A DNA stretch of 33,488 bases, from positions 1 through 33,488 of IMG/VR virus record IMGVR_UViG_3300017971_000173; one strand, given 5' to 3'. The first letter of the stretch is position 1, and each line of letters begins with the position of its first letter. This document shows, in pieces, positions 5,008 to 24,786 of the stretch. The stretch comes from a virus. A program made the translations under genes and the position numbers. Below the pieces are notes generated by a model. It worked only from the letters and a program-made list of their open reading frames with translations. It made no database searches and was not told the DNA's origin.

Positions 5008-5795
5008 TATATTCCTCCTGATTGAGGTGCCACCTGCATAGTATATGGACTTTGTTGCCCAAGATTAAACTGTCTTATTGCCTGCTGTTGTTGCTCTGCT
5101 CCCATTATATTTGCAAAACCTGCCTGACCAATATTTTGTCGCATTTGACCAAGATAATCAGCTTGCATTCCAAGCTGCTGTTGTTGCCGGAGTTGATTTA
5201 GCATATTCATCAAAGCAGTATTTACCTGCTCACCTTGAGCATTAAGATTTCCAGCTTCAATCTCAGCAATTGCATTTCTGGTTGCAAAATCACCTAGCAA
5301 TTGACCCCTAGATCTTGCCAATCCTGACATTCTATTAGTCAAAGCATCTTTCATCATAGCAAGCTGTCCTGACGTCCTACCAACTGGATTTCTTACAGGT
5401 CCACGCCTTGCTCCTATCTGTGCAAGATCGGATTGGTATCCGGACGTTGCTCCCTGATCCAAAATATTTAATAACGCTGCTAATCCTGTAGCACGTTGCG
5501 GACTTGCTTCTTGACCTATCTGTTGCGGCAAACCTGCTGTAATATCTGCTTGTGGTTGCACCCGTGGAGCTGCCGGAGAAAAAACATCTGGAATAGACCG
5601 CATACCCCTTAGCGACTGCTCAAGAGACTGTTTTCGTAGATCATATTGCTCAGGAGTTATACCCTGTCTTTTAAGAATCTGCTGACGCCTAAGTTCTTGT
5701 GGATTTCTCCATTGCCTCAGTTTTCTTAACCCTAAACCAATGCCTTGAAGAGCTATCGGTAGAGCATTAGCGGCCAAAGCTTGTAGGAATGCCAT
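5007..5795 (-). CDS. Internal virion protein candidate (T7 gp14 position).
   Basis: 262-aa ORF with a hydrophobic N-terminus (MAFLQALAANALPIALQGIGLGL) and a Q-rich body. Translationally coupled to the next gene. Synteny-based call. Confidence 0.45.
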   Translation of the reverse strand: MAFLQALAANALPIALQGIGLGLRKLRQWRNPQELRRQQILKRQGITPEQYDLRKQSLEQSLRGMRSIPDVFSPAAPRVQPQADITAGLPQQIGQEASPQRATGLAALLNILDQGATSGYQSDLAQIGARRGPVRNPVGRTSGQLAMMKDALTNRMSGLARSRGQLLGDFATRNAIAEIEAGNLNAQGEQVNTALMNMLNQLRQQQQLGMQADYLGQMRQNIGQAGFANIMGAEQQQQAIRQFNLGQQSPYTMQVAPQSGGI

Positions 5796-5881
5796 AATAC
5801 TTTCTCCTATATATGATATATATCAATAAATATGTTCATATAAATACTAGTAACGATAATAAAAAAATTAGAGAGGAAATT

Positions 5882-6349
5882 ATGGCACAAGAGATTTTAG
5901 TTTCTGACAATGTTGCATATTCTCAAGATGACAAACAATTATTAAGAAACATCTATCGAAAAACTAACGAGCTCGTATATATCATAAATACTAAAGATAC
6001 GGGTATATTTAATGATGAAGAATTCTTCACATCACAACAATGGTATGTTGGAAAAGATCAAGCAAGACAGCAAATGATATTTAGAAAAGTTATAGAATTT
6101 GGAGCGCTACCAAATACAGGCACTACTAACGTTGCGCATAACCTCAATCCTGGTGGAACGATAAATAATACTTGGGACTTTGTAAAGATATATGGCACAG
6201 CAAAAGACCCAGTAACTCCACAATGGATACGACTTGCACATCCAGCTATAACTATCGTGATAACCAATACTAATGTGAGCATAACAACAACTGCCAATTT
6301 AAGTGCATACACAGAAACTAGAGTAATACTTGAGTATACTAAACCTTAA
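5882..6349 (+). CDS. Hypothetical beta-rich protein; a lone plus-strand gene inside the minus-strand tail module.
   Basis: The track ORF is 5813..6349. The likely start is ATG 5882, preceded by GAGAGGAAATT. 155 aa with a T/N-rich C-terminus (ITIVITNTNVSITTTANLSAYTETRVILEYTKP). Its stop overlaps the stop of convergent gene 6346..7536 by 4 nt. Confidence 0.6.
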   Translation: MAQEILVSDNVAYSQDDKQLLRNIYRKTNELVYIINTKDTGIFNDEEFFTSQQWYVGKDQARQQMIFRKVIEFGALPNTGTTNVAHNLNPGGTINNTWDFVKIYGTAKDPVTPQWIRLAHPAITIVITNTNVSITTTANLSAYTETRVILEYTKP

Positions 6350-7536
6350 AAACTTAATGAGGGTTCTACATCAATCATAATCGCATTAATAGTAAGTTCT
6401 TGATAAGGAATATCATCATCAAGCATATTTTCATCTGAAAATCCCAAAGCTAAAGCAACACTCTCTGCAGATGCTTGAAGAAACACATCATGCCAAAGCC
6501 TCGATTGAGTAGATTCTTTCTCAACTAAAGCATAGGCAACTGTGTCAAGAGTATTATCTCCAAGATAAAAATTGGGAACATCTGCCTGAACAGTAGAGTT
6601 GTTTGGTAGTCCAGCTACTATTACGTTACCGTTAATAGCAGTTCTATTCACATTAAATGAAATTTTGTTAATAGATGTACCATAGCCCTGTGACATATAT
6701 GGATTGAACTGCTTGGTAGTTATTAAAATTAGGTCTATAAGTGCAAGCGTTCCATCTCCTAGGTAGTTACCAACAGTAAGGGTGCCATTATCTGTTATTC
6801 TAACAGTATCACCATCAACCACAGATTGTATTTTATACGAACCATTAAAGTTTACAAGAAGCGAGTTCTCTACTCTGATCCTATTGCTTGTAGTTAATTG
6901 ATGATTGTATACTTTAAGGTCTACATTATTTGCATCAAATCTTGTCATACTAATAATACTTTGCGAAGCATTATTCTTATAAGCGTTCGAATTAAACAAA
7001 AATGTATACCCCCTATGATTCCCTAACAATACCTTCGGTTGAACTATTAGACTTCCACTTGGACGATTATATATTGTTCCAAGTGCGGTATACAAGTCTA
7101 AAATCAGACTAAAAGTATTATTGCGAAAATTATATGCCAATAATCTGTTGCCATAAATATTATTAAGAGTGGTTGACATTAAAACATATATGAATTCATC
7201 TGCAGAATCTTTATAGATAGTTCCAAACCTATATTCATATGTATCATAATCATCATCAAGAGCTATACTCATCTTGTTAACATTTCTACCGTCATAAAAA
7301 TAAAAGCCAAAGTTATTAGCAAACATAAGCATATTATTGACTTCCACAACTTCGGTAGATCTGTTACCGTGCGTATCATCCACTAGGGCAATCTGGAATG
7401 GTTCTCTATAATTACCTGTAGGTACTAACTCATATATAGCATCAAGTCCAAATACTATTAACCTTCCATCAAGTATTTCTGCATTTCGTATTATTGTTCC
7501 CGCAGGAAGATCTACAAAACCCCCCTTGTTGCTCAC
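6346..7536 (-). CDS. Tail nozzle-position protein (T7 gp12 position), downstream part. Opens at GTG with no SD, in frame with 7552..8436.
   Basis: 396-codon ORF whose first codon is GTG (rc of 7534-7536). It has the same frame as the upstream ORF and is separated from it by TAG plus 15 nt. No AGGAG-like motif occurs in the 30 nt upstream. Beta-rich sequence (GRLIVFGLDAIYELVPTGNYREPF...). Confidence 0.5.
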   Translation of the reverse strand: MSNKGGFVDLPAGTIIRNAEILDGRLIVFGLDAIYELVPTGNYREPFQIALVDDTHGNRSTEVVEVNNMLMFANNFGFYFYDGRNVNKMSIALDDDYDTYEYRFGTIYKDSADEFIYVLMSTTLNNIYGNRLLAYNFRNNTFSLILDLYTALGTIYNRPSGSLIVQPKVLLGNHRGYTFLFNSNAYKNNASQSIISMTRFDANNVDLKVYNHQLTTSNRIRVENSLLVNFNGSYKIQSVVDGDTVRITDNGTLTVGNYLGDGTLALIDLILITTKQFNPYMSQGYGTSINKISFNVNRTAINGNVIVAGLPNNSTVQADVPNFYLGDNTLDTVAYALVEKESTQSRLWHDVFLQASAESVALALGFSDENMLDDDIPYQELTINAIMIDVEPSLSF

Positions 7537-7551
7537 ATCTGGTGGAGAATA

Positions 7552-8436
7552 CTATGAGTCTACAGAGAATGCATCTCCAAATGCACTATATCGTATGCGG
7601 TTTGGGTGTATTATTGCGTCAGCTGGATTCCCCTCTCTTTCTGTAGTATTAAGCAATAACAGTCTTTGTTGGAAATTAATAACATATCTACATCTTCTTA
7701 CATTAAAGTTTGCAACTGCTGATGTAGCAGGAAGCAGGTTTGTAAATACGGGTGTTGTAGAAGTATAATATCTCAAGCTATTATCACTTTTTGCTGCAAC
7801 TATTAATGCGGATTCACCTGATGTAGCACTCTGAAAGTTAACCCAACTAATGCGTTGCTCATCTGCTAATGTAAATAATCCAGCACCGCCAGTCACATAC
7901 TCCCAACCTCCAGTCGCACTATCATATTTATACGCGCGTTGACGATCAAACGCGAATTCAAGATTTCCTCCAGAAGAAAGATTATAGGTTGCAAATCCAA
8001 TAACTGGCATACATGGATACCAATATACAGTTGCACCAACAGGCGCCCCCGTAATATCTACTGTTCCAACACCCGCAACTATATTAAAATTTCCCGTTGC
8101 TCCCGCAGGAGATACACTCATGGCGCCAACCGCCTGATATGATGTAAATATTGTATTCCCTACAGAAAATTGTTGCCCAACCTCTGCAACCCCAGGCACT
8201 ATTGTGGCAGCTAGGTTTCCAGTTACGGGATCTGTGGTACCTATATTAACCCTAAGCCGTGAGGTTAAACCTCTTGCATCTGTATCATCTAAAAACCTTG
8301 CTGCAGGCCTACGCTTAATTTTACCCTCATATATAACCATATTGTTAAGAACTTGAAAAGCATCATCTGGAATCAAAAACTGTACAAAGTCTGTCTTGAG
8401 TCCATGATTGAATGGCGCTATGAGTATCTTATCCAT
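7552..8436 (-). CDS. Tail nozzle-position protein, upstream part (ends at the in-frame TAG 7552-7554).
   Basis: 294-aa ORF with ATG 8436 and SD TAGGAGGTAACATG. Together with 6346..7536 it would give about 696 codons, the size expected for a podovirus nozzle between an adaptor-position gene and the internal core genes. Confidence 0.5.
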   Translation of the reverse strand: MDKILIAPFNHGLKTDFVQFLIPDDAFQVLNNMVIYEGKIKRRPAARFLDDTDARGLTSRLRVNIGTTDPVTGNLAATIVPGVAEVGQQFSVGNTIFTSYQAVGAMSVSPAGATGNFNIVAGVGTVDITGAPVGATVYWYPCMPVIGFATYNLSSGGNLEFAFDRQRAYKYDSATGGWEYVTGGAGLFTLADEQRISWVNFQSATSGESALIVAAKSDNSLRYYTSTTPVFTNLLPATSAVANFNVRRCRYVINFQQRLLLLNTTEREGNPADAIIHPNRIRYSAFGDAFSVDS

Positions 8437-8444
8437 GTTACCTC

Positions 8445-9443
8445 CTAAAAATTATCAAAGTAGAACCATGAATCAGTTAGATTTTCTGAACCTGTAAATA
8501 TGGTAGATGTCCTATCTTTAGATTTATTAAGATGAGTTTTACGCATAACAAATACTTTTTGGCGATCATATTCAGGCATTATACGCGCAACGGTTTCATG
8601 ATCAGAAGAATCTTCAAGAATTTTTTTAGCAGCACCATATGCTATAAGTTGCCACCATTCTTTGATCAATGGTGTATCAGCATCATTTACAAATGCAGTT
8701 GGCTGAACTCTTACTTGGAGCTTTACTTCATAGACTTTGTCTGGGACAGGTCTAAAAGTAAACGTATTGTCAAAAAATAACACTGCATTGGGTATAGTTG
8801 GCTTATAAGAAAAACACTCATATGTTATAGCCTGTCCAGCTGCTGGTGCAAGTGGAAAGGTTATATTAATCACACCTGTTAAATAATTAATATTACCTAT
8901 GTTGTTATCAGCATTATCTCTCATTTCACCAATAATTGAGGATATGCGACCATAGCCATCTGTTGTTGGAACATCACGCGCAATCATCGCATCATTATTT
9001 AAATCCAATGCTCCAATAACAACTGACCCCTGCAATACATCAGTTGGAAGACTATAAGTAAAAGCCGTAGCAATACCATTACCACTACCTATACTACCTA
9101 GTGTCTTTCTTTCTCTATAATAATTATAAAAATTCTCTGGATATTGATACATCCGTAGCTGTCTTCCGGCCAAATATATTGGTCTATCGGTCATTACTAC
9201 AAAATCTTTAAAATCTTTAAGATTGAGGATGAAATTTCCAGCTGTTGTGCTGTATGAAGCCACATTGGGAGTTGTAGTAAACGATATATTCTTAAATAGG
9301 TCAGAAGTTTGGACCATCTGAGGGAAATCATACAAGTAGAATGTATTAATATACCCAAGAATAGAGGCATCAGAAATTTGGCTCGTGTTTGGGCGTTTAG
9401 TTAATAATCTAACCTTATTTCTAATATCAAGTAATGTTGACAT
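8445..9443 (-). CDS. Virion protein, adaptor / tail-tubular-A position.
   Basis: 332-aa ORF with SD (rc of 9448-9456 GGAGGGAG). Positioned between the capsid-proximal genes and the nozzle-position gene. No motif recognised. Confidence 0.4.
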   Translation of the reverse strand: MSTLLDIRNKVRLLTKRPNTSQISDASILGYINTFYLYDFPQMVQTSDLFKNISFTTTPNVASYSTTAGNFILNLKDFKDFVVMTDRPIYLAGRQLRMYQYPENFYNYYRERKTLGSIGSGNGIATAFTYSLPTDVLQGSVVIGALDLNNDAMIARDVPTTDGYGRISSIIGEMRDNADNNIGNINYLTGVINITFPLAPAAGQAITYECFSYKPTIPNAVLFFDNTFTFRPVPDKVYEVKLQVRVQPTAFVNDADTPLIKEWWQLIAYGAAKKILEDSSDHETVARIMPEYDRQKVFVMRKTHLNKSKDRTSTIFTGSENLTDSWFYFDNF

Positions 9444-9459
9444 ACAACTCCCTCCTTAC

Positions 9460-9834
9460 TTAATTATCCATAAGGTCATCTATACGCCTAAAGGTATAAC
9501 GCCTTACTATTCCTTGGTGTTTGCCAAGATATCTTCCATGCTTGTCAATTTCAATATCACTGACTGGATACGAGCATCGATTTATATGTTTTGCCACTTC
9601 CAAAGGAAGCGTATACTTCTTCCCATCTTCAAGCGTATATTTTTTAGAAACGCCACTACGACCGCAAAGACTCCTGGAAAAGTAACTAAATGTTATAGGT
9701 GCACCACGCACCTCCCAGTTTTTAAAAATCCCATCTACCATGCATATCTTAGATTTTTTTGACTTACCTTTAGTTGGCGTTAGGGCTTCTTCTAGCTTGA
9801 CCGATTGTTTTATATCTTGTTGTTTTTCTTCCAT
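9460..9834 (-). CDS. Hypothetical virion-module protein (124 aa).
   Basis: The track ORF is 9460..9909. The likely start is ATG 9834 with AAGGAGAAATAT upstream. The longer version would run through the GC hairpin 9857-9873. Confidence 0.6.
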   Translation of the reverse strand: MEEKQQDIKQSVKLEEALTPTKGKSKKSKICMVDGIFKNWEVRGAPITFSYFSRSLCGRSGVSKKYTLEDGKKYTLPLEVAKHINRCSYPVSDIEIDKHGRYLGKHQGIVRRYTFRRIDDLMDN

Positions 9835-9856
9835 ATATTTCTCCTTCACTAAGAGA

Positions 9857-9873
9857 GGGGGCCAGAGGCCCCC
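9857..9873 (-). terminator. GC hairpin (7-bp stem GGGGGCC/GGCCCCC, 3-nt loop) after the capsid-proximal genes.
   Basis: Perfect inverted repeat, followed on the minus strand by TCTCTT. Confidence 0.5.
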
Positions 9874-9878
9874 AATTA

Positions 9879-10832
9879 TTATATTCCAAATGTATCGCCT
9901 GCAATCCAATGAATTACATCATTAGCAGCACCACCAGCAGCGGTAGCCCCACCTTTGATTTCAAATCCTCTGAATTGAGTATTTGTTATTGGCCCACTAA
10001 GTGGTATAACTTCAGCATATTTGTTTAGCCCTTCTCCTGTTGTTGGGAATGCAAACGCTGTATATCCTGAGGAATCTATATCAACTGTAATTGTATTAGT
10101 ACCAAGAGCTGTATCGATAGCAAGTATTTTTGCTTCTGCAAGATTTATTTCCTTCATGCCAAATTCTGGCGGACACATAATTCTTACATAGTCACCAACT
10201 GCATATTCGTGAGTTACTGTCATTTTGATAACAGTTGTGGCACCGGCAGTAATAGCCGATATAAATCTATTGCGAGGATACCAAACTTTCTCATACTTAA
10301 CTTTATAAAAACCGGCTGTTGTTGCAACGCTACTTGCCACCATGTTGATTAATTCTAAGCTTGTATTTGCAACAATATTATCAATAGTAAAGTCCATGCC
10401 TTGAAGTTGTGTTGCTCCTGTAACATTTCTCATTCTAATAATATCACCGTCTACCAATCCAGCTGTACTTGTTAACGATACAACAGGAGGTGCGGCACTT
10501 GTGATAGCTGTAACCGTAGTATTAACCGCAGATAGAGGATTGTTCCCAGTGTTTATTTTAGATATTCCTGAACCTGCTGCAAGAAGAGTGCTTTCCAGCG
10601 TGAGGGCACCGCCAGTAGTTTTTCTTTCTGCCATACCATAGTTCTGCGTTGCTGCATTAGGCGCTTGCTGCCAATATGTTTTGACAATCTGATTATTGCC
10701 AACTGCTGTTGTCGGCCACTGTGTGGCATTCATAAGTTTAATCCAATTAGCATCCAAAGGAACTTCCAGAAACTTATCGTTACCATCGGAAGTATATGTA
10801 CCTTGCATTATCATACTTTGAGACATAGCCAT
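9879..10832 (-). CDS. Virion structural protein directly downstream of the major capsid gene (decoration or head-proximal protein?), with an internal duplication.
   Basis: 317-aa ORF with SD AAGGAGTATAATTATG. Two similar segments are present: LVDGDIIRMRNVTGATQLQGMDFTIDNIV and AVGDYVRIMCPPEFGMKEINLAEAKILAID. They resemble the small beta-barrel GD.V.I...G...LNG repeat often seen in phage structural proteins. A strong hairpin follows the gene. Confidence 0.55.
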   Translation of the reverse strand: MAMSQSMIMQGTYTSDGNDKFLEVPLDANWIKLMNATQWPTTAVGNNQIVKTYWQQAPNAATQNYGMAERKTTGGALTLESTLLAAGSGISKINTGNNPLSAVNTTVTAITSAAPPVVSLTSTAGLVDGDIIRMRNVTGATQLQGMDFTIDNIVANTSLELINMVASSVATTAGFYKVKYEKVWYPRNRFISAITAGATTVIKMTVTHEYAVGDYVRIMCPPEFGMKEINLAEAKILAIDTALGTNTITVDIDSSGYTAFAFPTTGEGLNKYAEVIPLSGPITNTQFRGFEIKGGATAAGGAANDVIHWIAGDTFGI

Positions 10833-10843
10833 AATTATACTCC

Positions 10844-11785
10844 TTATGTGGTAATAGTTGCACGGCCTCTTAACAAGTAAGAGTCGTTAAGGATTTTAGG
10901 CACTTGCACCCATTTAACAGCAGCAGTAAAGTTTTGATGCAGCGGATCTAATGGAGGTGTATACAAGAACTTAGCATTGCCTTCGAGAGATACACGCGCA
11001 GCAGCTTCTTTTCCAACACAGAAAATATTATACACAGCTTTACCAAGGGAAGATGGAACTGAATCAATAGAACCTTGAGATGACGTATGAAATGCAAAAC
11101 CGTTAATTGTTCCATGTTCTGATTGTTTTATGCCTATCTGATTTGGATATTTTATTTTTTCAACAAACGAAGGTATCGCATCTAAATCAGAAATAAGGTC
11201 CGTATGACATAATGCATAATATGCTTCACGAGTTGGAACTGTATTGATTTTATTTTCACCAGGACGCCCCATGACGCATGGATATGCATCATTGCTACGC
11301 ATTGTTTGATACAGCTTAGCTGCGTCTTGCGCAGTAATTTCTGTTGGATCGTCACCATTCTCACCGAACACGCAATCATAAAAAGATGCCGTGGAAGCGA
11401 GTACATTCCTGATAAGTTCGTCATCAGTTTCCTTCATAAATACACCGAGACGCTCTGCAAGAACATTTAAAACGGGATCCTGAGACGTGATTACAACCTG
11501 CTCATTCGAGGTAACATATGTTCCATACCATTGAACTTCTGCATCTATATCAATTGCTTTTAATTGCTGCCCCGGAGGGGTTGCGCCAGAGTTTCCAAGA
11601 GGGGTTGTATCAGTCACAAGAGGAATATATCTTCTAAATCTTAATGTATTACCATTATTCCTTTGCAAAACTTTCCGTTCGAGAGGTAAGCCATGAATTA
11701 AGGATCGCGTTCTTGAACGTAAAAGTTTAAATGCATAGCTTTGAGCTATTGGAGGAGGCAATACTGACGTGGTCGTAATAGCCAT
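10844..11785 (-). CDS. Major capsid protein, HK97 fold, N4-gp56-like family.
   Basis: 313 aa. The pattern NGNTLRFRRYIPL...TPLGNSGATPPGQQL...IDAEVQWYGTYVTSNEQVVITSQDPVLNVLAERLGVFMKETDDELIRNVL matches my recollection of the N4 gp56-type capsid family (G.T..FRR...L...PL.EG.TP.G..L.....A.V.QYG.YV..SD.....A.DPVL......L). It follows a scaffold-like gene. Not verified by search. Confidence 0.8.
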   Translation of the reverse strand: MAITTTSVLPPPIAQSYAFKLLRSRTRSLIHGLPLERKVLQRNNGNTLRFRRYIPLVTDTTPLGNSGATPPGQQLKAIDIDAEVQWYGTYVTSNEQVVITSQDPVLNVLAERLGVFMKETDDELIRNVLASTASFYDCVFGENGDDPTEITAQDAAKLYQTMRSNDAYPCVMGRPGENKINTVPTREAYYALCHTDLISDLDAIPSFVEKIKYPNQIGIKQSEHGTINGFAFHTSSQGSIDSVPSSLGKAVYNIFCVGKEAAARVSLEGNAKFLYTPPLDPLHQNFTAAVKWVQVPKILNDSYLLRGRATITT

Positions 11786-11851
11786 AACTTACTCCTATAA
11801 AAATTTACATGTATTATTAATACTTCTGGGTTCGCGACACCCTTACCGCTA

Positions 11852-11911
11852 TGGATTGGCGAGTTCCTTACAGCCATTATAAATTTGTGGATTGGCGAGT
11901 TCCTTACAGCC
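11852..11911 (-). repeat. Two perfect 24-bp direct repeats (TGGATTGGCGAGTTCCTTACAGCC), period 36, upstream of the major capsid gene.
   Basis: Copies at 11852-11875 and 11888-11911. A degenerate third GTAAGG half-site lies at about 11839-11848 (rc CGGTAAGGGT). Confidence 0.9.
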
Positions 11912-11959
11912 TTATTTGACTATAGAATGTAAAATGAAAAAATTTAAAGAATTTATGCT

Positions 11960-11991
11960 AGACACCTGAAAGGAAGTCAATTCAGGTGCCT
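11960..11991 (-). terminator. Hairpin between the scaffold and capsid genes (11-bp stem with one G-U pair).
   Basis: Minus-strand RNA AGGCACCUGAA...UUCAGGUGUCU. No clean U-tract, so it may act as an attenuator or processing site. Confidence 0.4.
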
Positions 11992-12006
11992 AGCTAGTGA
12001 AGACTA

Positions 12007-12786
12007 TTAATATCGAGATATAGCTTCGTACATTTCTTCCTCTAGGGCTGCACCTATTTCTTCGTTATAACCATTAGCAAGTCGTCCAGCAATATTTAAA
12101 GGAGAATTTTGCTGATCTTTAATTGCTGTAGTAGGTATTGGCTTACCTGTGTTTGTATCAACTTTTACTTGATTATGTTGATTTACAGGTTGTTGATCTT
12201 CTTTCATGAATTTTTTAATCAATCTATAGGTTGCCTTACCACGATTGTACAATGGATCGTTATTTTGAATGGATGACTTCAATTCAGGATATTTTTTAAG
12301 AAAAGTCTTAACGTTATCGGCTGTTACAACATTATTAAAATCGGAGAACTCATTATTTAGCTTAAGTTCCGCGGTCATTTCTTCACTGTAACTACGCCAT
12401 TGATCTAGTTCTTGCTTCATTTGGTTCATTTGGTTAGCTACTTTATTAAGGTCTTTTCCCTCAACATAGGCATCTTCCTGAAATGCCTCTTGTTGAGACT
12501 GTTGTTGCTGAAATCCTAGTTGTGCTTCAACATTTCGTATATATTGAGCCATCTGATCACGCTCATATTCTGCTTGTTGCTTAGCTTGACGAAGATTTTT
12601 AACATTCTCATCAAAAGCATTTTCTTGATGAGAGTTTTGCTGTAGTGTAGGCTGATCTTGCAGCGGCGCTTGTTGCGGCTGCTCCTCTGACTGCTGTTCT
12701 AGCTCCTCTTGCGGTTGAGGCGCTTCAGCTACTGCTTCTTGTGTATATGGTTGTTGTATTGGCTGATCAATATTTTTTTCATTCAT
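12007..12786 (-). CDS. Scaffolding protein candidate.
   Basis: 259-aa ORF that is Q/E-rich and predicted helical, lying immediately upstream of the capsid gene. Confidence 0.6.
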   Translation of the reverse strand: MNEKNIDQPIQQPYTQEAVAEAPQPQEELEQQSEEQPQQAPLQDQPTLQQNSHQENAFDENVKNLRQAKQQAEYERDQMAQYIRNVEAQLGFQQQQSQQEAFQEDAYVEGKDLNKVANQMNQMKQELDQWRSYSEEMTAELKLNNEFSDFNNVVTADNVKTFLKKYPELKSSIQNNDPLYNRGKATYRLIKKFMKEDQQPVNQHNQVKVDTNTGKPIPTTAIKDQQNSPLNIAGRLANGYNEEIGAALEEEMYEAISRY

Positions 12787-12787
12787 A

Positions 12788-13318
12788 TTAACTCCTTGTT
12801 ACAGAAAATACTTGCTTTCTTGCCCTCTTGTTTTCAAGGTATTCTATCCTCGCAAGTTCTCCACTATAATATTTTCTAATATTCTCGTACAAATCTTTCT
12901 CATCCTCAGGGACAAGACCAATATTGTTTTTGTACAATTCACAAATATCAATGTCTGGAACTACCCATAAAAATTCCAGATTATCATCTCTTTTATTATA
13001 CTTGTAGACTGCCTGATCATAGAACGGTGTTGGACATGATCTTTGAGCAGCAAAAATATTTTTTCGACAATCTCGAATCAGACGATCTTTACAAAATAAT
13101 ACATGTATATAAAAATCATCATCAAAGTGCTTCTTCCCGTTCTTTAAGCACTCATATATCTGATTTGGATAATCTTTCAACTCTTCATCAACCTGATCTT
13201 GCGCACAATGCGTATTGAATTTACGCTTAGGCTCTAATATAAGTGACCGCTCTCCAATAGTTTGATCACCCTTATCCTTTATCTTCGTATATCTCACCCA
13301 TCCTTTATATTTTTGCAT
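12788..13318 (-). CDS. Hypothetical protein (176 aa).
   Basis: The track ORF is 12788..13453. The likely start is ATG 13318 with AGGGGAAGTTGT upstream. The N-terminal extension of the longer ORF would overlap the divergent gene start and promoter. Confidence 0.6.
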   Translation of the reverse strand: MQKYKGWVRYTKIKDKGDQTIGERSLILEPKRKFNTHCAQDQVDEELKDYPNQIYECLKNGKKHFDDDFYIHVLFCKDRLIRDCRKNIFAAQRSCPTPFYDQAVYKYNKRDDNLEFLWVVPDIDICELYKNNIGLVPEDEKDLYENIRKYYSGELARIEYLENKRARKQVFSVTRS

Positions 13319-13335
13319 ACAACTTCCCCTATATT

Positions 13336-13344
13336 TGCTATAAT
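13336..13344 (+). promoter_or_regulatory. Extended -10 element TGcTATAAT upstream of island gene 1.
   Basis: TG at 13336-13337 and TATAAT at 13339-13344. No good -35 element. Confidence 0.4.
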
Positions 13345-13385
13345 ATAAATGACATATTATAAATCTAAATCGGAGGAGGATTAAT

Positions 13386-13643
13386 ATGAAGGTTATAAAT
13401 GCAATTGCACTTTTGACATTGCTCTCTTCACTTACGATATGTCCAGCGAACAAACATAGAAAGCTGCGGGTTTATAAAAGACCTAGAACTGTAATGCAAA
13501 GAGATCTGTACAGAAACCAAGATCGTAAAAAAACACTCTGTACGCCAGATGTTATGAATCTTAGTGGAAAGATTGCCGCATCCATCATACAAGGAGGAGC
13601 GATAATCATTGGAGCTGTCTTAAGAGCTCTCATAGATAAATAA
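13386..13643 (+). CDS. Small secreted or membrane protein (island gene 1).
   Basis: SD GGAGGAGGATTAATATG. N-terminal signal-like segment MKVINAIALLTLLSSLTIC and C-terminal hydrophobic segment IAASIIQGGAIIIGAVLRALI. Confidence 0.65.
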   Translation: MKVINAIALLTLLSSLTICPANKHRKLRVYKRPRTVMQRDLYRNQDRKKTLCTPDVMNLSGKIAASIIQGGAIIIGAVLRALIDK

Positions 13644-13694
13644 GCGTTTCGTGTAATGGCCTGGTGAAATATCTGGGCCGCTTAATCATATGTC

Positions 13695-13723
13695 TTGACA
13701 CAATATTTATCATGTGTTATACT
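13695..13723 (+). promoter_or_regulatory. Sigma70-type promoter: TTGACA-17 nt-TATACT.
   Basis: TTGACA at 13695-13700 and TATACT at 13718-13723, upstream of island gene 2. Confidence 0.6.
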
Positions 13724-13751
13724 GTTAATACAAGATATGAAAGGAACACAC

Positions 13752-13928
13752 ATGATTGAATCACTAATAGTTTTGTTTGGATTTGGAATATTGGTATTAG
13801 GATTGATAATATTTTTTAAGACATTATTAATGATCTCTGCCAGAGATTACAGGAGAAAGTTAGAGCTTGCACATGCAAGTAAATGCTGTTGCAACTCTTT
13901 CTGCAAGAGAAATAAGGATTTTAAGTGA
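13752..13928 (+). CDS. Small membrane protein with a Cys-rich tail (island gene 2).
   Basis: The first 29 nt of track ORF 13695..13928 are a TTGACA-17-TATACT promoter, so the start is ATG 13752 (AAAGGAACACAC upstream) or ATG 13737. TM segment IESLIVLFGFGILVLGLIIFFKTLLMI; tail KCCCNSFCKRNK. Confidence 0.55.
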   Translation: MIESLIVLFGFGILVLGLIIFFKTLLMISARDYRRKLELAHASKCCCNSFCKRNKDFK

Positions 13929-14167
13929 TGTATAAAATATTGCTTGCTTCATTACTACTTTTCACGACACTCGGGGGCATGAAGAAGGCCCCCGAATGGA
14001 CCGAGAAAGATTTTCAGCTCGCAAGAAGACTTATCAAGGTGCTTAACGCGGTTGAAGATCTTAAAAGCGAAATAAAAAAACGGATAACTGAATGTGAAGA
14101 AAACACAAAGAAGCTCTTCGAGGAAGAACTCGAAAGACTTAAAAAAAATAAGGATTTATATGAATAA
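13928..14167 (+). CDS. Small signal-anchored coiled-coil protein (island gene 3).
   Basis: GTGATG at 13925-13930 overlaps the upstream TGA. N-terminus MYKILLASLLLFTTLGG, followed by a charged helical region. Confidence 0.6.
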   Translation: MYKILLASLLLFTTLGGMKKAPEWTEKDFQLARRLIKVLNAVEDLKSEIKKRITECEENTKKLFEEELERLKKNKDLYE

Positions 14168-14516
14168 AATTACATTTGAGGATTTAAGGAGCAAAGGAAA
14201 AGAAATCATCTGGAACAAAGAAAGGCTTGAAGACGGAAACTATAAAGTAACTATTACATTTGATCATGACGTAAAGAAATCAATAATCATGCAAGCTGTT
14301 CCTGGTCAATATACAGACAAAGACGGAGTCACATTCAAAGAAAAGCCAGAATTAAAAAAAGAAGACTCTGAAAAGCTCGTTGACTCAAGAATTCAAACCG
14401 CACTTACACAACTTCAACAAGCAATCTTCACTTTTAATTATTATGGCGGCAAGATCGATGGATTTATTAGCTCCGGAGAAGCAAGTGCGAAAGATAACAG
14501 TAGTCCTCAGGGATGA
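14160..14516 (+). CDS. Hypothetical soluble protein (island gene 4, 118 aa).
   Basis: Internal ATG 14160 of track ORF 14094..14516, with AAGGATTTAT upstream. Overlaps the previous gene by 8 nt. Confidence 0.55.
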   Translation: MNKITFEDLRSKGKEIIWNKERLEDGNYKVTITFDHDVKKSIIMQAVPGQYTDKDGVTFKEKPELKKEDSEKLVDSRIQTALTQLQQAIFTFNYYGGKIDGFISSGEASAKDNSSPQG

Positions 14517-14682
14517 AACTGAACGGCAGTTCGAGTATATACTTAAATCTCGCGCTGAGCGTGATAGATGGCAAAAATTACCTAGCTATAAGGAAGTAAT
14601 GATAGAAGCAATGCGATTATTATATATCAAAGAACTAAAGGAAGTAAAGAAAGAAGCCAATGGAAAGACTAGAAAAGATTAA
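14458..14682 (+). CDS. Ribbon-helix-helix (Arc/CopG-like) DNA-binding protein candidate (island gene 5).
   Basis: The sequence RKITVVLRDETERQFEYILKS...SYKEVMIEAMRLLYIKE has a beta-strand-helix-helix pattern. The start is ambiguous: ATG 14443, ATG 14458, or GTG 14485 preceded by GGAGAAGCAA. It overlaps the 3' end of the preceding gene. Confidence 0.45.
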   Translation: MDLLAPEKQVRKITVVLRDETERQFEYILKSRAERDRWQKLPSYKEVMIEAMRLLYIKELKEVKKEANGKTRKD

Positions 14683-14980
14683 GAAGATGGTAGGACTCGA
14701 CAAAGAGAGTGCACTATTACTTAAGAACCAACAAATCAAGGAAAGACAGAAGATAGATGATTCCAATAAGAGACTGCTTTCTATGTGCTTTGAGAATGCT
14801 CTCATATTGTTTTACGATACTGTTGACGAAAGACTAGAGCCTAATACAGGCAAGATTACCAAACGACAAACTATATATTTATCTCCAAGATCTAATGCGA
14901 AATTTAATGAGTTAGCCTTTAGACATAACTATGTTCTCCAAGACCTAGCTAACATAATAATAAAAAAAATTTATGGATAA
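14660..14980 (+). CDS. Second ribbon-helix-helix candidate (island gene 6); the RHH-like motif is at the C-terminus.
   Basis: 106-aa ORF. The C-terminal KRQTIYLSPRSNAKFNELAFRHNYVLQDLANIIIKKI fits a strand-helix-helix pattern. An alternative start is ATG 14687. Confidence 0.45.
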   Translation: MERLEKIKKMVGLDKESALLLKNQQIKERQKIDDSNKRLLSMCFENALILFYDTVDERLEPNTGKITKRQTIYLSPRSNAKFNELAFRHNYVLQDLANIIIKKIYG

Positions 14981-15016
14981 CTATCCCTTCAATACACCTA
15001 ATCCATATAGTAAAAA

Positions 15017-15034
15017 GGGTGGCCTAGGCCACCC
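15017..15034 (-). terminator. Intrinsic terminator at the convergence of the portal operon and the plus-strand island.
   Basis: Palindrome GGGTGGCCTAGGCCACCC. It is followed by TTTTTAC on the minus strand, but the plus-strand side lacks a U-tract. Confidence 0.6.
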
Positions 15035-15049
15035 ACACAGAAGAAGCTA

Positions 15050-15154
15050 CTAATACTCCTTCTTTTTTTTTCGTTTCTTTGGTTTTTGTGAAGATCCAAG
15101 GATATTTTCAACTATCTTTGTTGCTTCACCCTTAGGTCTCAATGAGGCAGGCAC
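15050..15154 (-). CDS. Possible 34-aa highly basic peptide (below the ORF-track cutoff).
   Basis: GTG (rc of 15152-15154) shares its G with the TAG of the upstream gene (TAGTG), with GGAGA 6 nt upstream. Hand translation: (M)PASLRPKGEATKIVENILGSSQKPKKRKKKKEY, stop TAG 15050-15052, ending just before hairpin 15017-15034. Confidence 0.3.
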   Translation of the reverse strand: MPASLRPKGEATKIVENILGSSQKPKKRKKKKEY

Positions 15155-15417
15155 TACATATCTCCATTATATGGGCCATATTTAGGTACTGACTGACCCT
15201 TCTCTCCAACATCATTAGCCATAGGTAAATCCATCTCCATGAACTGTTTAGGGACTACACCCTTAGATGTTTTAACCATATTCCAATATGTAGCCTGATC
15301 TTTGTTTGAATTATAATATCCTGCAAATGGCTCATAAACATCTGACTCATGCATCATTGCCTTGTCATGTTTGTTGTATTTGCGCCCAGAAGGCTGATAT
15401 TTCTTTTTTGTAGGCAT
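15154..15417 (-). CDS. Hypothetical protein downstream of the portal gene (87 aa).
   Basis: ORF with SD TAGGAGTAAGTTATG. Confidence 0.65.
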   Translation of the reverse strand: MPTKKKYQPSGRKYNKHDKAMMHESDVYEPFAGYYNSNKDQATYWNMVKTSKGVVPKQFMEMDLPMANDVGEKGQSVPKYGPYNGDM

Positions 15418-15483
15418 AACTTACTCCTATATATAGTAATAAATAAAAAATATTAATATTTCAATCTACATCCTCATTATTCT

Positions 15484-15510
15484 GGGGTGGCCAAGTGGGG
15501 AAGCCACCCC
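15484..15510 (-). terminator. GC hairpin just after the portal stop.
   Basis: GGGGTGGC ... GCCACCCC, 8-bp stem. No U-tract. Confidence 0.35.
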
Positions 15511-15522
15511 ATCGAGGAGAGC

Positions 15523-17637
15523 CTATAATTCCTGCTGAAACGCTTGCTCATCAGGTTGCAGCATCTCTTCTTGAAACGCTTGCTCCTGAGGAAATTCTTG
15601 TTGTGCTATAGGAGCATTAGCCATCTCCTGGTCTAATATTGCATCCTGCAAAGGAACTTCCTTAACTGTATCTTCACGCTCAGCCTGTATAATTTGCATC
15701 AAATCAACTAGCTCATCAATCTTATTTGGATCTGACTGCTCAAGATCTTTTAAAACCTTTATAGCTTCTAGATTTGTTTCTTGCTCCTTGCGGGCTGTAT
15801 CCATCGCATCATTAATCATATTGAACTTATCTTGCTCAACCTCACTCTCACGAGTTTTAGCTAATGCTTGATCAGCCTGAGCTTTAGAGTTCATCATATT
15901 CATGGTAGCTTGCTGCTCTGCCATTGCTGCCTGAGCTTGTTGTTGCTGCATTTGTGAAACTTCTTGTTTTTGTTGATCTATGGCCTTGATAAGCTCATCT
16001 TTATTTTGTATATTAGCCGCATTTATCATCGCAGAATCAGGAATCTCAATACCAAGTTCTTTAAGAACTACAAGCTCGGTAAATGCTTGTTGTCTTTGTG
16101 TAGATGTGTCAAACCCTTCTTCAATTGCAATATCATACTTTGCAAACTTCTTACTATAAAATTCTTGCGTAGGATCTTCTCCCAAAATCCTTCTAACTTT
16201 TCCAGGTGTATAATTATTTTGAATTGTCTTAACAATTATTTCGCCTAGAAGTTTTTGAGAATGGTCCAATTGATCAAATAAAGTTTGTTGCTGAATCAAC
16301 GCCCATCCATGGCGCTGGCGTGCAAGTGCTGCTGACTTAAAGTCATCTGCAACACCTAAAAGTTCCTCAGAAGCACCAGAGATTTCTTGGAACTCTCTAC
16401 CAAGCGCCTCTGTTAATTGAGGCCACGAAGCTGGAATTTCATTTTGTGGTATAGGAGCAAAATCACCCATATCGGCATTCCTCTTGAGTCGTATCATGCG
16501 CCCCTGACCAGTCTTCATCGGAGCATCTGGATCTACAAGTGATGATTCTTTATAAACATATCCATTAGTAGCAACAGATTCGGCATAATCAAGCTCTATT
16601 ATTTTCCTACGATTGTATAGATACTGAGTATCTCTTAAACCCCTTACAATGCCCTGTATTCGTAGTGGAAAATTATGAACGTCTGGGTCAAAGTATCCAA
16701 ATACCGGAACGAATGGATAAGTATCTATACCCAACGGATTAACATCATCGTACATTACAGATCCATTTACTAATAAAGCCAGCTTAACTGTAGGAACCTT
16801 AGTATCTATCACCTTGACTTGTGGATACATAGCAATAAATTCGCGCAATGCTTCATTACTACCTGTCCACTCCAATGTCTCCCCTAAATTAACATCGACA
16901 AGCAGCTTTTGCTTTCTGTAATCTCTATAATAAAACTCATCATATGCCAATAAATTCTTATTTAGAAGCTCGTTTTCAGGAAGATAGGGGAATTTCCCAT
17001 CATTGTAATAAGACGTCATCGGTTCTATTAATTCTTTCTTATCCGGGATAAGCGACATGACAGCATCTTTACACAAAAATGATCGTTTCCACATTGCATT
17101 ACAATCAGAAAGATCTTTTTTTCTAAAGTATGGGTCAATAACAAAACTATTATAGCTACAATTATCTACTTTAATATCTCCTGATACCGGATCATTTCTA
17201 TAGTCAACCCACACTTGCATTAAATTCATGCCTGTAACTATAGCCCCATTATAGGATTCTGATAAGACATCAAGTATATTTGCATTCTTAGAGGCTGCAA
17301 ATAAAAGCTTCGTAAGTTGATCTGCCGTCTGCTGATCAGAATTTTCAACTGGAGTTGCCTTCATAGTTTTACGTGTTCTTCGCTGATAACCGGAAAGGAG
17401 ATTTGTTATTCGCCTAATATGATTAAAGCTGAAATTCTTTCTAGTTCTTATGGGAACATTATAAAGCTCACTCCATAAAGTCTGATCGCCTGCATTAAAG
17501 CGCGCATCAATACTTGCCTCATGCCAATACGTCTGATTTACCATCATAGCATCATTATAGAATGTTTCGACCATCTCTCTTACGGCAGCATCTCCACTGT
17601 TGATTGTTATAATGTTTCCCTGAGGAAATAAAGCCAT
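15523..17637 (-). CDS. Portal protein.
   Basis: 704 aa, located in the packaging/head module near TerL. The N-terminal region (YNDAMMVNQTYWHEASIDARFNAGDQTLW...IRRITNLLSGYQRRTRK) is portal-like. The long Q/E-rich helical C-terminus is reminiscent of the P22-type portal barrel. SD TAGGAGTAGTTTAATG. Confidence 0.85.
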   Translation of the reverse strand: MALFPQGNIITINSGDAAVREMVETFYNDAMMVNQTYWHEASIDARFNAGDQTLWSELYNVPIRTRKNFSFNHIRRITNLLSGYQRRTRKTMKATPVENSDQQTADQLTKLLFAASKNANILDVLSESYNGAIVTGMNLMQVWVDYRNDPVSGDIKVDNCSYNSFVIDPYFRKKDLSDCNAMWKRSFLCKDAVMSLIPDKKELIEPMTSYYNDGKFPYLPENELLNKNLLAYDEFYYRDYRKQKLLVDVNLGETLEWTGSNEALREFIAMYPQVKVIDTKVPTVKLALLVNGSVMYDDVNPLGIDTYPFVPVFGYFDPDVHNFPLRIQGIVRGLRDTQYLYNRRKIIELDYAESVATNGYVYKESSLVDPDAPMKTGQGRMIRLKRNADMGDFAPIPQNEIPASWPQLTEALGREFQEISGASEELLGVADDFKSAALARQRHGWALIQQQTLFDQLDHSQKLLGEIIVKTIQNNYTPGKVRRILGEDPTQEFYSKKFAKYDIAIEEGFDTSTQRQQAFTELVVLKELGIEIPDSAMINAANIQNKDELIKAIDQQKQEVSQMQQQQAQAAMAEQQATMNMMNSKAQADQALAKTRESEVEQDKFNMINDAMDTARKEQETNLEAIKVLKDLEQSDPNKIDELVDLMQIIQAEREDTVKEVPLQDAILDQEMANAPIAQQEFPQEQAFQEEMLQPDEQAFQQEL

Positions 17638-17893: not shown

Positions 17894-18418
17894 CTAAGCT
17901 ACTTTATATTTTTTTACCACAGGAAGGCTCCAACTGTGTAAGTTAGCCAAGTCATCCACCTTCCAAAACACCAAGTTTTTTTCTTGAACACAGCTATGTA
18001 AATTCTTGAATAAAAAATCTATATCCTGGCAAAACTTTCCACTCGGTGATATTCTTCCATCCCTAAGGCCTCCGTCAACAACCCAAACTATACATAGTTT
18101 GATCTGAGATTTGTTGTTCATCTCAACGTATTTAACAAAATCAGTATAACTCAAAGGAACAGTCCAAACTCCCTCATAATATCCACAAGTCTCCATGTGC
18201 TTAACTTCTACAATACGAGCATTCTTCTTATTATATACCAAAAGATCCGGAGCCGAATAACTTAACTCATGCACATCTTCGAACTCTACACCTTTACCAC
18301 TAGGATCGTCATTGTGTTTTTTTATTCTCCACGAAGTATATCCTTTAAGGTCGAATATCCTAGCCACGTCGCGCTCTGCGGCATGCCCATAAGGCAAATT
18401 CTCTTTATATCTTTTCAT
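17894..18418 (-). CDS. PD-(D/E)xK nuclease (Hjc / RecB-like fold).
   Basis: The likely start is ATG 18418 (GGGAGTAAAA upstream); the track ORF extends to 18511 over the TerL 3' end. Motifs: GHAAERDVARIFDLKGY (helix with Glu), APDLLVY (Asp) and ARIVEVKH (E-x-K), in the order and spacing typical of Hjc-like resolvases and restriction-fold nucleases. Confidence 0.6.
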   Translation of the reverse strand: MKRYKENLPYGHAAERDVARIFDLKGYTSWRIKKHNDDPSGKGVEFEDVHELSYSAPDLLVYNKKNARIVEVKHMETCGYYEGVWTVPLSYTDFVKYVEMNNKSQIKLCIVWVVDGGLRDGRISPSGKFCQDIDFLFKNLHSCVQEKNLVFWKVDDLANLHSWSLPVVKKYKVA

Positions 18419-18461
18419 TTTTACTCCCACACCAACAGGGAGCACTAGGAAAAGGAGAAAC

Positions 18462-19838
18462 CTAGTACTCCCTATCGCTAAATACAGGAGGAAGATTCGA
18501 TTCCCCCCCATATATTAATTCTTTATATTTCTTGTCAAATTCTTCAGGAGAGCGCTCATCAGTATCTATTCTATCTATAGATAGACACATATACCTAAAT
18601 GCATCGACATGATCGTTCGTCCAATCTTTTTTTTCATCGTTCACAAATCTTTTAGTCATAGGATCCCAATACCGAGAATAATTCTCCAACGCATCCAACA
18701 GTAACGAACAGCTCTTCTCATCAATAAATATTCGCTTGAATTTCACACGCACTGCCTCTATACCATCATGAAATCCCGCTCGTCCAAGCATAGTTGGCTC
18801 AATTCCAAGATCGCTCAATACATCAAGCCTGCTCTTGCAATCTTTAACATCTCGGTTAGCCGCATCATGAGGTACAAAATGTTGTCCATATTGATAACCA
18901 TACTCAGAAGAATATGAGCGCAACACACTCACATAATGTGACAATCCCTCATTGTTTCTATGGTAATGATTAATTACACATATCTTTCTACCAATGACTT
19001 GATAAAAAATTACAACACTTGCCGCCCGAACACCAAGATCCCATGCAGTGTGTACCAGGTGATTGCTATCATGAGGAACATAACCAACCCTATTTTCCGC
19101 ATAGGCTGAATGAACATATTTTGCATACCATGACCCCGTATTTGAAACCTCAAAGCTGCAATAATATTCCTGTAAGAATAGTTCCTCAGACATTCGAGCT
19201 TTCTCTTTAGCCAGCTGTTCCGGTGTCATATGCTTAGTCTCATCAACCGTCAACATCTTGACATACCAATCAGGATCTTCACCTGACATTCCATACTTGT
19301 AAACCTCATGAAATGCATTGTGACCATTCGGAGTTGATATAAAAGTCACCCAACCATGATTAGCGGCCAAGATAGGTGCGATAACTCCGTTATATGCTTC
19401 AGGGTGATTGACGCGACTATACTCAGAAAAAACCACCCCAACAGGATTGGTACCACGTAACGAGTCTGCGTTATCTGCTCCATTGAATTGTATAATACTG
19501 CCATTAACAAGAACAATCTTCATCTCTACGTTGTTTTTTTTGGCGATTAGACGCTTAGGTATAAAATCCAAAAATTTTTCGCCAGTAATCAAAATTGAGT
19601 CCCATATGGCACGACGACACTGATCGTACTTTGGATAGAGATAATAGTATACTCCGACACGCTTAAAAGCTTGCCTCAACATAAGGTTTAGAGAGGCCAC
19701 ATCCTTACCTGCACGACGTGGCCACACAATGACAAACTTCTTCTTGCCCTCATGTTCTAGAGCATTGATAAGATCCCTCTGATACCAACGAGGCTCAAAA
19801 GCAGTAACTTTTATAATTTCTTCTTTTGTTTCTTCCAT
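18462..19838 (-). CDS. terL: Terminase large subunit.
   Basis: 458 aa. Walker A-like VWPRRAGKDVAS, Walker B-like GVVFSEY, and a C-terminal RNaseH-like nuclease region (AWDLG...DHVDAFRY). SD AAGGAGACTATG. Confidence 0.9.
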   Translation of the reverse strand: MEETKEEIIKVTAFEPRWYQRDLINALEHEGKKKFVIVWPRRAGKDVASLNLMLRQAFKRVGVYYYLYPKYDQCRRAIWDSILITGEKFLDFIPKRLIAKKNNVEMKIVLVNGSIIQFNGADNADSLRGTNPVGVVFSEYSRVNHPEAYNGVIAPILAANHGWVTFISTPNGHNAFHEVYKYGMSGEDPDWYVKMLTVDETKHMTPEQLAKEKARMSEELFLQEYYCSFEVSNTGSWYAKYVHSAYAENRVGYVPHDSNHLVHTAWDLGVRAASVVIFYQVIGRKICVINHYHRNNEGLSHYVSVLRSYSSEYGYQYGQHFVPHDAANRDVKDCKSRLDVLSDLGIEPTMLGRAGFHDGIEAVRVKFKRIFIDEKSCSLLLDALENYSRYWDPMTKRFVNDEKKDWTNDHVDAFRYMCLSIDRIDTDERSPEEFDKKYKELIYGGESNLPPVFSDREY

Positions 19839-24361: not shown

Positions 24362-24391
24362 TATGATTCCTTTCCAAACATGTTTACTTTT

Positions 24392-24735: not shown

Positions 24736-24786
24736 TAATAGGTGTAAGTTTCTCGAGAGTTTACGACACGCCTTGCACATTTCCCC

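Follow-up and report, generated by a model that had tools for sequence, protein, structure and literature searches.

The window analysed here, which is the whole 33,488-nt stretch of IMG/VR virus record IMGVR_UViG_3300017971_000173, is a phage genome of about 33.5 kb, assembled as a circle, with its first 33 nt identical to its last 33 nt and otherwise unique. The minus strand carries almost every gene of the window. Six open reading frames (ORFs) on the plus strand, named i1 to i6 in this work, form an island between two minus-strand operons, one with the portal gene, g87 and a 34-aa gene, and the other with g176 and the scaffold and major capsid genes (Table 1). Its products comprise envelope proteins, a cytoplasmic orphan and at least one protein predicted to bind DNA through a ribbon-helix-helix (RHH) fold. 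The island is an accessory operon that is autonomous, stable throughout its clade, driven by conserved promoters of the sigma-70 type, and insulated from the portal operon that converges on it. Both statements are regarded as firm.

Six plus-strand genes within the head module

A previous sequence-only reading of this DNA had described six plus-strand genes interrupting the minus-strand head module, between the portal and scaffold genes. The six ORFs are present and are counter-oriented beside the portal as described; their real neighbours, however, are the 34-aa gene, which the earlier reading missed, and g176, not the scaffold gene directly. Both the GC skew and the AT skew flip their sign exactly across positions 13501–15000, and the G+C content of the island (0.35–0.37) equals that of its flanks.

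For comparisons, 28 loci encoding related portals (L numbers) were taken from IMG/VR and examined by tblastn and ORF inspection, and two extra lineages, L042 and L044, were recovered via protein look-ups. Against L006, the closest relative (portal 91% identical), the proportion of non-synonymous differences (pN) is far below that of synonymous differences (pS) in all six ORFs, which indicates that all of them are real genes under purifying selection. The ratio of the corresponding rates (dN/dS) is 0.19 for i1, 0.21 for i3 and 0.14 for i5; for i2, i4 and i6 the synonymous sites are saturated, with pN of 0.35, 0.23 and 0.09, respectively. Minus-strand ORFs within the island were considered and rejected, being short, with the selection signal and the skew reversal held by the plus-strand frames.

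The i5 ORF proposed earlier is a real gene, but its start was moved from 14458 to a GTG codon at 14485, because every i5 homologue in the alignment begins with MRKITVV and a GGAGA precedes this codon. ORFs i2 to i6 are joined by a TGATG at i2/i3 and by overlaps of 8 nt (i3/i4), 32 nt (i4/i5) and 23 nt (i5/i6), which fits a single polycistronic message.

Table 1. Positions of the island genes, their transcription signals and the neighbouring genes in the window
Feature	Position	Strand	Remarks
Plus-strand island block	13386-14980	+	Between portal-g87-34-aa operon and g176-scaffold-capsid operon
i1	13386-13643	+	85 aa
i2	13752-13928	+	58 aa; tail KCCCNSFC
i3	13928-14167	+	79 aa
i4	14160-14516	+	118 aa
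i5	14485-14682	+	65 aa; GTG start
i6	14660-14980	+	106 aa
i6 RHH unit 1 (predicted)	~14675-14815	+	AlphaFold2 model of P0006, a natural i5-i6 fusion
i6 RHH unit 2 (predicted)	~14861-14971	+	AlphaFold2 model of P0006
Deletion junction	14478-14481		In-frame deletion of ~265 bp removing iX, a gene of relatives; blastn, window against L006
P1	13336-13344	+	Extended -10 TGCTATAAT; in the 67-bp divergent g176/i1 spacer
P2	13695-13723	+	TTGACA-17-TATACT with TGTG -16 element; 11/12 consensus matches plus TG
Palindrome, candidate operator	13698-13717	+	ACACA-N10-TGTGT; spans the P2 spacer
Hairpin after i1	13654-13684	+	-12.9 kcal/mol, z = -1.6; weak in the window
Palindrome after i6	15017-15034	-	GGGTGGCCT/AGGCCACCC; intrinsic terminator of the converging portal-g87-34-aa operon
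Candidate weak promoter of g176-scaffold-capsid	13342-13369	-	TTTAGA-16-TATATT; consensus scan
g176	12788-13318	-	176 aa; precedes the scaffold gene
Q-rich scaffold-like gene	12007-12786	-	
Major capsid gene	10844-11785	-	
34-aa gene	15050-15154	-	MPASLRPKGEATKIVENILG...
g87	15154-15417	-	87 aa
Portal gene	15523-17637	-	P22-like; PF16510, E = 4e-64
terL	18462-19838	-	

The earlier proposal of small membrane proteins agrees with the hydropathy profiles, which place hydrophobic segments at residues 1–21 and 63–84 of i1, 1–30 of i2 and 1–18 of i3, and none in i4. The i1 product begins with a signal-like segment and ends with a transmembrane segment, and its basic middle part contains a conserved motif of the Cys-Pro type; homologues occur in L006, L002, L028, L042 and L044, and none in L003. 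ORF i2 encodes a protein with a single N-terminal transmembrane segment and a basic tail, which is Cys-rich in most lineages (L006, L002 and L028; without Cys in L003); no i2-like ORF was seen in L042 or L044. The i3 product starts with a Sec-type signal peptide that has small residues where cleavage is predicted; a conserved M-K-K-x-P-E-W motif and then a charged, probably helical region come after it. Homologues of i3 occur in L006, L002, L028 and L042.

ORF i4 encodes a soluble orphan protein. Its AlphaFold2 model (predicted local distance difference test, pLDDT, 83) presents a three-stranded sheet packed against a long helix, and a Foldseek search of this model against the PDB and BFVD gave no match with a TM score above 0.4. 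A HMMER profile of i4 retrieved 12 hits among 1.84 billion representative sequences, about 10 of them full-length; apart from two weak hits to repeat proteins, it found the same small family alone. Clusters drawn from 5.8 billion proteins were likewise small, with 12 members for i6, 8 for i5 and 12 for i4. The profiles of i4, i5 and i6 matched nothing among PDB sequences, RHH chains included, and the six products, together with the homologues from the relatives, gave sub-threshold noise in Pfam, PHROGs and PADLOC. The island proteins are all new families, among which i4 stands out as a conserved orphan with a confidently predicted fold that has no match in the libraries searched.

The structure of i5 and i6 was modelled with AlphaFold2 on P0006, a single 170-aa ORF of L003 in which the two proteins are naturally fused (20 aligned sequences; pLDDT 86). 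MAFFT alignments of the fusion misplaced either the i5 tail (A4) or the i6 N-terminus (A5), and A4 was used. The i6 part of P0006, which is 47% identical to i6 of the window, was modelled with pLDDT above 90 as a strand and two helices (E68-75/H77-94/H101-116) followed by a second strand and two helices (E130-137/H138-150/H155-167). These are the only strands in the model and must therefore pair with each other, so that i6 is predicted to be a single-chain double RHH protein. In a Foldseek search of the PDB, the top 11 hits were TraY chains of the F-plasmid relaxosome, whose chain identity was verified (probability up to 1.00, target-normalised TM score 0.53–0.70, E about 1e-2, root-mean-square deviation of about 3 Å over about 100 columns; for the best matches, TM 0.62–0.70 and 3.0 Å over ~102 columns). 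Hits lower in the list included DndE and single-chain Arc.

In the same model, the i5 part has helices at 10–24 and 35–52 (pLDDT 70–80) and no strand in its monomeric context, an appearance that a lone RHH monomer would also have. Its sequence, a RKITVVL pattern followed by two helices, fits one RHH unit. Alignment of i5 with the i6 units by hhalign gave P of about 0.03–0.04; among the three putative units the register was consistent and the scores were not significant. Neither i5, i6 nor their homologues matched RHH sequence families (Pfam RHH_1, Arc, CopG and others) at E <= 1. The earlier idea of two RHH proteins thus holds in part: the RHH fold is predicted for i6, but as two units and not as a domain with a C-terminal RHH, and i5 is a candidate. 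As a phage-borne single-chain double RHH protein, i6 has no sequence relative in the libraries searched. It would represent a new phage-borne family of such proteins, for which TraY is the sole good solved-structure match found here.

Relatives and the portal-g176 spacer

Genes i4, i5 and i6 occupy the same site, with the same counter-orientation, in L002/L016, L003, L004, L006 and L007/L028, whose portals are 57–91% identical to that of the window. With L042 and L044, the operon is present in at least seven related lineages, and i4-i5-i6 is its invariant core. An additional small gene is found in L006 (94 aa) and another in L002. Moreover, a gene of 97–114 codons, iX, whose product is helix-rich by eye, lies between i4 and i5 in L002, L003, L004, L006, L028 and L042, and is missing from the window and L044. 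In the window, the deletion of iX fused its last ~10 codons onto i4 and made the long i4/i5 overlap, which is therefore a deletion scar. The gene layout of the window, with an identical i6 protein, recurs on contigs from at least four samples. In addition to the i5-i6 fusion of L003, L044 carries a protein (P0038) that joins the signal peptide and the conserved motif of i3, in frame, to i4.

This gene content bears on the possibility of a toxin-antitoxin or abortive-infection-like locus, in which an RHH antitoxin (i5 or i6) would neutralise a small toxin (i4 or iX). RHH proteins are common as antitoxins and autorepressors, and the island has the small overlapping genes and operon organisation of such loci. 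Nevertheless, iX has been deleted from a genome that recurs in several samples, i6 is predicted as two RHH units with no toxin-binding tail, and no toxin family was matched in Pfam, PHROGs or PADLOC. We assign to this explanation a very slight probability, the smallest of those considered.

A lysis cassette was also weighed, with i2 as a holin-like protein, i1 as a u-spanin-like protein, i3 as an i-spanin-like or secreted coiled-coil protein, and i5 and i6 timing their expression. The topologies of i1 to i3 resemble those of lysis proteins, and lysis genes are unaccounted for in the genome, where no endolysin, holin or spanin family is detectable with Pfam and PHROGs. On the other hand, the lipobox-like Cys of i1 is lacking in L028, L042 and L044; none of i1, i2 and i3 is present in every lineage, and the distant relatives have none of them; no muralytic enzyme gene is adjacent; and the promoter class, shared with the replication genes as described below, is the wrong one for lysis timing. 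Taken together, a lysis cassette is very unlikely.

The relatives with portals of about 45–52% identity (about 25, comprising the remaining IMG/VR loci and nine loci from metagenome-assembled genomes, MAGs) have no i1–i6 homologues. They retain the portal, a g87-like gene, the 34-aa gene, g176, scaffold and capsid genes, and their portal-g176 spacers of 0.6–4 kb contain other genes, mostly on the head-gene strand. Different counter-oriented signal-peptide genes are found at the same spot in L020, L022, L025 and L036; in L022 and L025 one of them has the i1 architecture and lies 21–25 bp from g176. The spacer is therefore a hotspot for accessory genes; the i1–i6 operon, which relatives with the same head module lack, is its clade-specific occupant and not a core virion component. 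This agrees with the accessory status proposed before, as the relatives' spacers were checked for a conserved core-virion role and i1–i6 are absent at about 50% portal identity. The description of the island as a moron applies in part: it has its own conserved promoters and is present or absent at the same site, but it is not recent, being stable in the clade, and it presents neither an atypical base composition nor a downstream terminator of its own (the U-tract is on the opposite strand only).

Among the neighbouring genes, g176 has no Pfam or PHROG match; because all relatives, including those whose portals are just 45% identical, keep it between the portal and scaffold genes, it is probably a core head-assembly protein. 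The 34-aa gene lies downstream of the g87 homologue in most of the relatives' spacers inspected, including those at about 50% portal identity. The terL and/or capsid homologues of many relatives (L002/L016, L007/L028, L010, L015, L019, L026, L027, L034, L036, L040 and L041) are split into two or three tblastn pieces by inserts of about 0.1–1.2 kb, which are probably introns, inteins or homing-endonuclease insertions; the copies of the window are uninterrupted. Between terL and portal, the minus-strand ORF at 17894–18511 shows by eye a PD-(D/E)XK-like motif (APDLLVY...VEVK) and may encode a homing or other nuclease. Its distribution is patchy (68% identical in L001, 33% in L006, absent elsewhere).

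The phages of this clade are podovirus-like and uncultivated. The portal of the window shares no more than 23% identity with the portal of any isolated phage, no DNA similarity of the region to isolated phages was found, and Rfam and tRNA scans of the window gave nothing. The Pfam and PHROGs searches, which included all ORFs of at least 70 aa in the non-structural region, made two non-structural assignments, an Erf-like annealing protein (25891–26637) and a replication-initiator-like protein with a helix-turn-helix (HTH) motif (22888–23679). Besides the lysis families, they detected no integrase, repressor, polymerase or RNA polymerase; the earlier remark that neither an integrase nor a CI-like repressor can be seen is thereby borne out. 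The distant relative L034 (CAVYKV010000002.1; portal 47% identical, no island) lies on a 546-kb MAG contig, about 14–36 kb from its end, and may be an integrated prophage. The assignment of a host from the MAG bins was rejected, as the bins with relatives span seven bacterial lineages (Pseudomonadota, Actinomycetota, Chlamydiia, Babeliales, Clostridia and two of Bacteroidota), one archaeal bin and one unclassified bin.

Elsewhere in the window, a second lone plus-strand gene (5813–6349, 178 aa, without a family match) lies amid minus-strand genes for tail and internal proteins. Two tandem pairs of paralogues are encoded on the minus strand at 27041–28363 (223 and 216 aa) and 28601–29205 (99 and 100 aa); the larger two share their N-terminus, and one of them has a weak C1q-like match.

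Transcription signals around the island

Two promoters had been read upstream of i1 and i2, and both P1 and P2 are found at those positions and are conserved across related lineages. The P1 position reads TGnTATAAT or TGnTAAAAT in L006, L002, L028 and L042, and a weaker TGTTATCTT in L044; the g176/i1 spacers of these relatives measure 67–72 bp and have diverged in sequence apart from the P1 elements. In a consensus scan, P2 is the best promoter-like site within bases 1–17000. Its elements (a TTGACA-like -35, and an extended -10 with TGn, mostly TGTGn) are found in the window, L006, L028, L042 and L044; in L002, where the retrieved sequence ends, TTGACA alone was read. L003, which lacks i1, has a single TTGACA-17-TATCAT promoter in the spacer between g176 and the island. 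Promoter-like sites are no commoner in the window than in shuffled sequence, and P1 and P2 are taken as real because of their conservation in diverged relatives, not because of site counts.

Genome-wide, at least 10 of 12 consensus matches plus TG occur at four intergenic sites: P2 and the promoters upstream of 23765–24361, of 25103–25807 and of the Erf gene. This promoter class, shared with replication and recombination genes, suggests that the island is expressed early or constitutively. The strong promoters (13709–13723, 24392–24405, 25045–25058 and 25832–25845) bear a -16 element of the TRTG or RTG type, and the ribosome-binding sites of the island genes are strong and of the GGAGG type; these are Firmicutes-like expression signals. 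Two of the strong promoters are divergent (24419–24392, minus strand; 25030–25058, plus strand) and enclose a 740-bp non-coding stretch (24362–25102), with a G+C-rich alternating tract near 24788–24806, that could be an origin or control region.

The hairpin after i1 is replaced in L002, L028, L042 and L044 by a G+C-rich hairpin followed by a T-run, which makes a true terminator at this position. The palindrome after i6 had been proposed as a terminator for the portal transcript on the opposite strand, and this interpretation stands: its hairpin has -15 to -17 kcal/mol, and the T-run that would give a U-tract is on the minus strand only. A G+C-rich hairpin or palindrome of differing sequence comes right after i6 in six of six other lineages (L002, L003, L004, L006, L028 and L042), preceded by an A-run in at least five of them. 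Since this terminator stops the portal transcript, the head operon would have to restart from the 67-bp divergent region, which is the only intergenic DNA there. A candidate promoter for g176-scaffold-capsid lies in that region, with its -10 overlapping the -10 of P1, and TTTAGA or TTTAAA with an A/T-rich hexamer can be seen by eye in the relatives' spacers; our confidence in this candidate is low.

The overlap raises the possibility of a developmental switch, in which i5 and i6 (with i4) would be the phage's regulators of late transcription. Made early, i5 and i6 would bind the 67-bp region, silence P1 and P2, and activate or unmask the promoter of the g176 operon, a step that TraY-like DNA bending could aid. 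Several features speak for such a role: the head operon needs a start of its own, given the conserved terminator upstream; the -10 elements of the two strands overlap; i4-i5-i6 are the invariant core of the island; apart from the HTH of the replication-initiator-like protein, the genome has no other recognisable regulator; and the structural genes are without strong sigma-70-type promoters. But relatives with about 50% portal identity have the head module and g176 without i4, i5 and i6, which are therefore not required for the head module in general, and no common binding motif was demonstrated. A switch of this kind is unlikely. Its farther-reaching version is that i4, i5 and i6 are an undescribed DNA-binding module that toggles P1 against the head-operon promoter as the developmental switch of the clade, setting the early-to-late transition or a carrier state in phages without a recognisable repressor, antiterminator, sigma factor or RNA polymerase; this we consider quite unlikely.

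The palindrome ACACA-N10-TGTGT, a candidate operator, is unique in the window, where 1.4 matches are expected by chance, and occurs also in L006 and L028. It may merely reflect TTGACAca and the TRTG -16 element of the promoter. Neither this palindrome nor the box TGACAYAWT, common to P1 and P2, is enriched over shuffled sequence, and no operator is claimed.

An anti-defence operon of the acr-aca type was considered as well, in which a strong early promoter would drive small orphan effectors (i4, iX and perhaps others) that inhibit host immunity, with the RHH proteins as Aca-like autorepressors. The order of a near-consensus promoter, orphan genes and 3′ DNA-binding genes is that of such operons, the palindrome overlaps the promoter, the gene content varies (iX, i2 and the extra 94-aa gene of L006), and RHH proteins of the Aca type exist, as exemplified by Aca14. 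Yet i4 is conserved and not variable, half of the cargo is membrane-bound or secreted, which is unusual among known anti-defence proteins, the operon runs on the strand opposite to its neighbours, and PADLOC, which covers defence systems, gave nothing. We regard an acr-aca-type operon as improbable.

A proposed early accessory operon and its known counterparts

The reading we favour, and to which we give an even chance, is that the island is an accessory operon that is expressed early, is autoregulated by its RHH proteins and carries cargo acting on the envelope; its timing of expression, its autoregulation and the function of its cargo are what we infer here. According to this model, the host sigma-70-type RNA polymerase would start at P1, giving i1, and at P2, giving i2–i6, which are probably translationally coupled, since their ORFs abut or overlap. 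The products of i1, i2 and i3 would be inserted into or exported across the cytoplasmic membrane, and most likely alter the envelope of the infected cell, for example for superinfection exclusion or receptor masking, while i4 (and iX where present) would act in the cytoplasm. As a dimer and as a single-chain pseudo-dimer, respectively, i5 and i6 would bind DNA through their RHH beta-ribbons and, as products of the 3′-terminal genes, most likely feed back on P2 and P1 and limit expression, a behaviour known from RHH and HTH regulators of other early accessory operons. The hairpin after i6 would halt the portal transcript, and the g176 head operon would restart from the region that it has in common with P1.

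Some observations weigh against this reading. No product has homology to exclusion, anti-defence or regulatory families in Pfam, PHROGs or PADLOC. The structure of i6 was predicted from a shallow alignment (20 sequences), with Foldseek E values of about 1e-2, and the assignment of i5 as one RHH unit, which rests on its helices and sequence pattern, is unproven. The candidate operator is not statistically separable from the promoter elements. Each membrane protein is missing somewhere (i1 and i3 from L003, i2 from L042 and L044), so that, with an invariant core of i4-i5-i6, the envelope proteins may be secondary cargo. Finally, the MAG bins that hold relatives are taxonomically scattered and name no host.

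In any case, the island is a defined regulatory unit, with two promoters, a terminator and two predicted DNA binders, in an almost entirely unannotated clade of phages. If its cargo mediates exclusion or counter-defence, the proteins concerned would be new families; should the RHH pair govern the neighbouring head operon, this would be a new kind of timing switch.

In phage P22, the immI region is likewise accessory and lies among late genes; it has promoters of its own and encodes two RHH-fold binders beside a membrane protein gene. The island shares with it the accessory nature, the location within late genes, the own promoters, a predicted RHH-fold binder (with i5 as a second candidate) and membrane proteins, a likeness from which kinship with immI and sieA had been suggested. 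However, no product has homology to Arc, Mnt, Ant or SieA, and there is no repressor for an antirepressor circuit, so the comparison is one of analogy only. The exclusion, anti-defence and carrier-state functions suggested earlier are conjectural, and what the present analysis contributes to them is the promoter class shared with the replication and recombination genes. An immI-like region in the functional sense, in which two RHH repressors control an antirepressor-type effector beside a sie gene and maintain a lysogenic or carrier state, is highly improbable: the island lacks a detectable antirepressor or lysogeny module, neither an integrase nor a partition gene nor a repressor of the CI or c2 type is detectable, and L034, whose MAG contig could hold a prophage, is without the island. 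The island differs further in that one of its binders is predicted as a single-chain double RHH and in its clade-wide presence in apparently non-temperate phages.

For i6, the best solved-structure match is TraY of the F plasmid, a monomer that holds the whole fold of an RHH dimer in one chain (PMC12117103). The predicted i6 likewise has two RHH units in a single polypeptide, as a pseudo-dimer, and is shorter (106 aa, compared with 131 aa for TraY). By sequence, hhalign aligned the two with a non-significant P of 0.16, the best alignment being in the structurally correct register; i6 has no Pfam TraY match, and no relaxase or conjugation family was found among the ORFs searched across the genome.

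The llp gene of phage T5, which encodes a lipoprotein for lytic conversion and superinfection exclusion, adjoins late structural genes and has its own promoter. Its product is an exclusion protein expressed early by a lytic phage (PMC9586334). The likeness to the island resides in a small exported envelope protein (predicted for the island), a lytic phage and early expression (inferred for the island); no homology exists, i1 is not consistently a lipoprotein, and the island is a multi-gene operon with regulators.

The RHH protein Aca14 is encoded at the 3′ end of an early accessory operon, which it autorepresses via an inverted repeat at the promoter (bioRxiv 10.64898/2026.07.27.740549). Aca14 operons and the island have in common a strong promoter (an early one in the Aca14 operons), small orphan genes and a 3′-terminal RHH gene. 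The island differs in having no known Acr or anti-defence homologue, three envelope proteins, two putative RHH genes and an operator that is a candidate. In its architecture, the island belongs to a known type, that of moron-like early operons which sit inside late genes and carry a regulator at the 3′ end.

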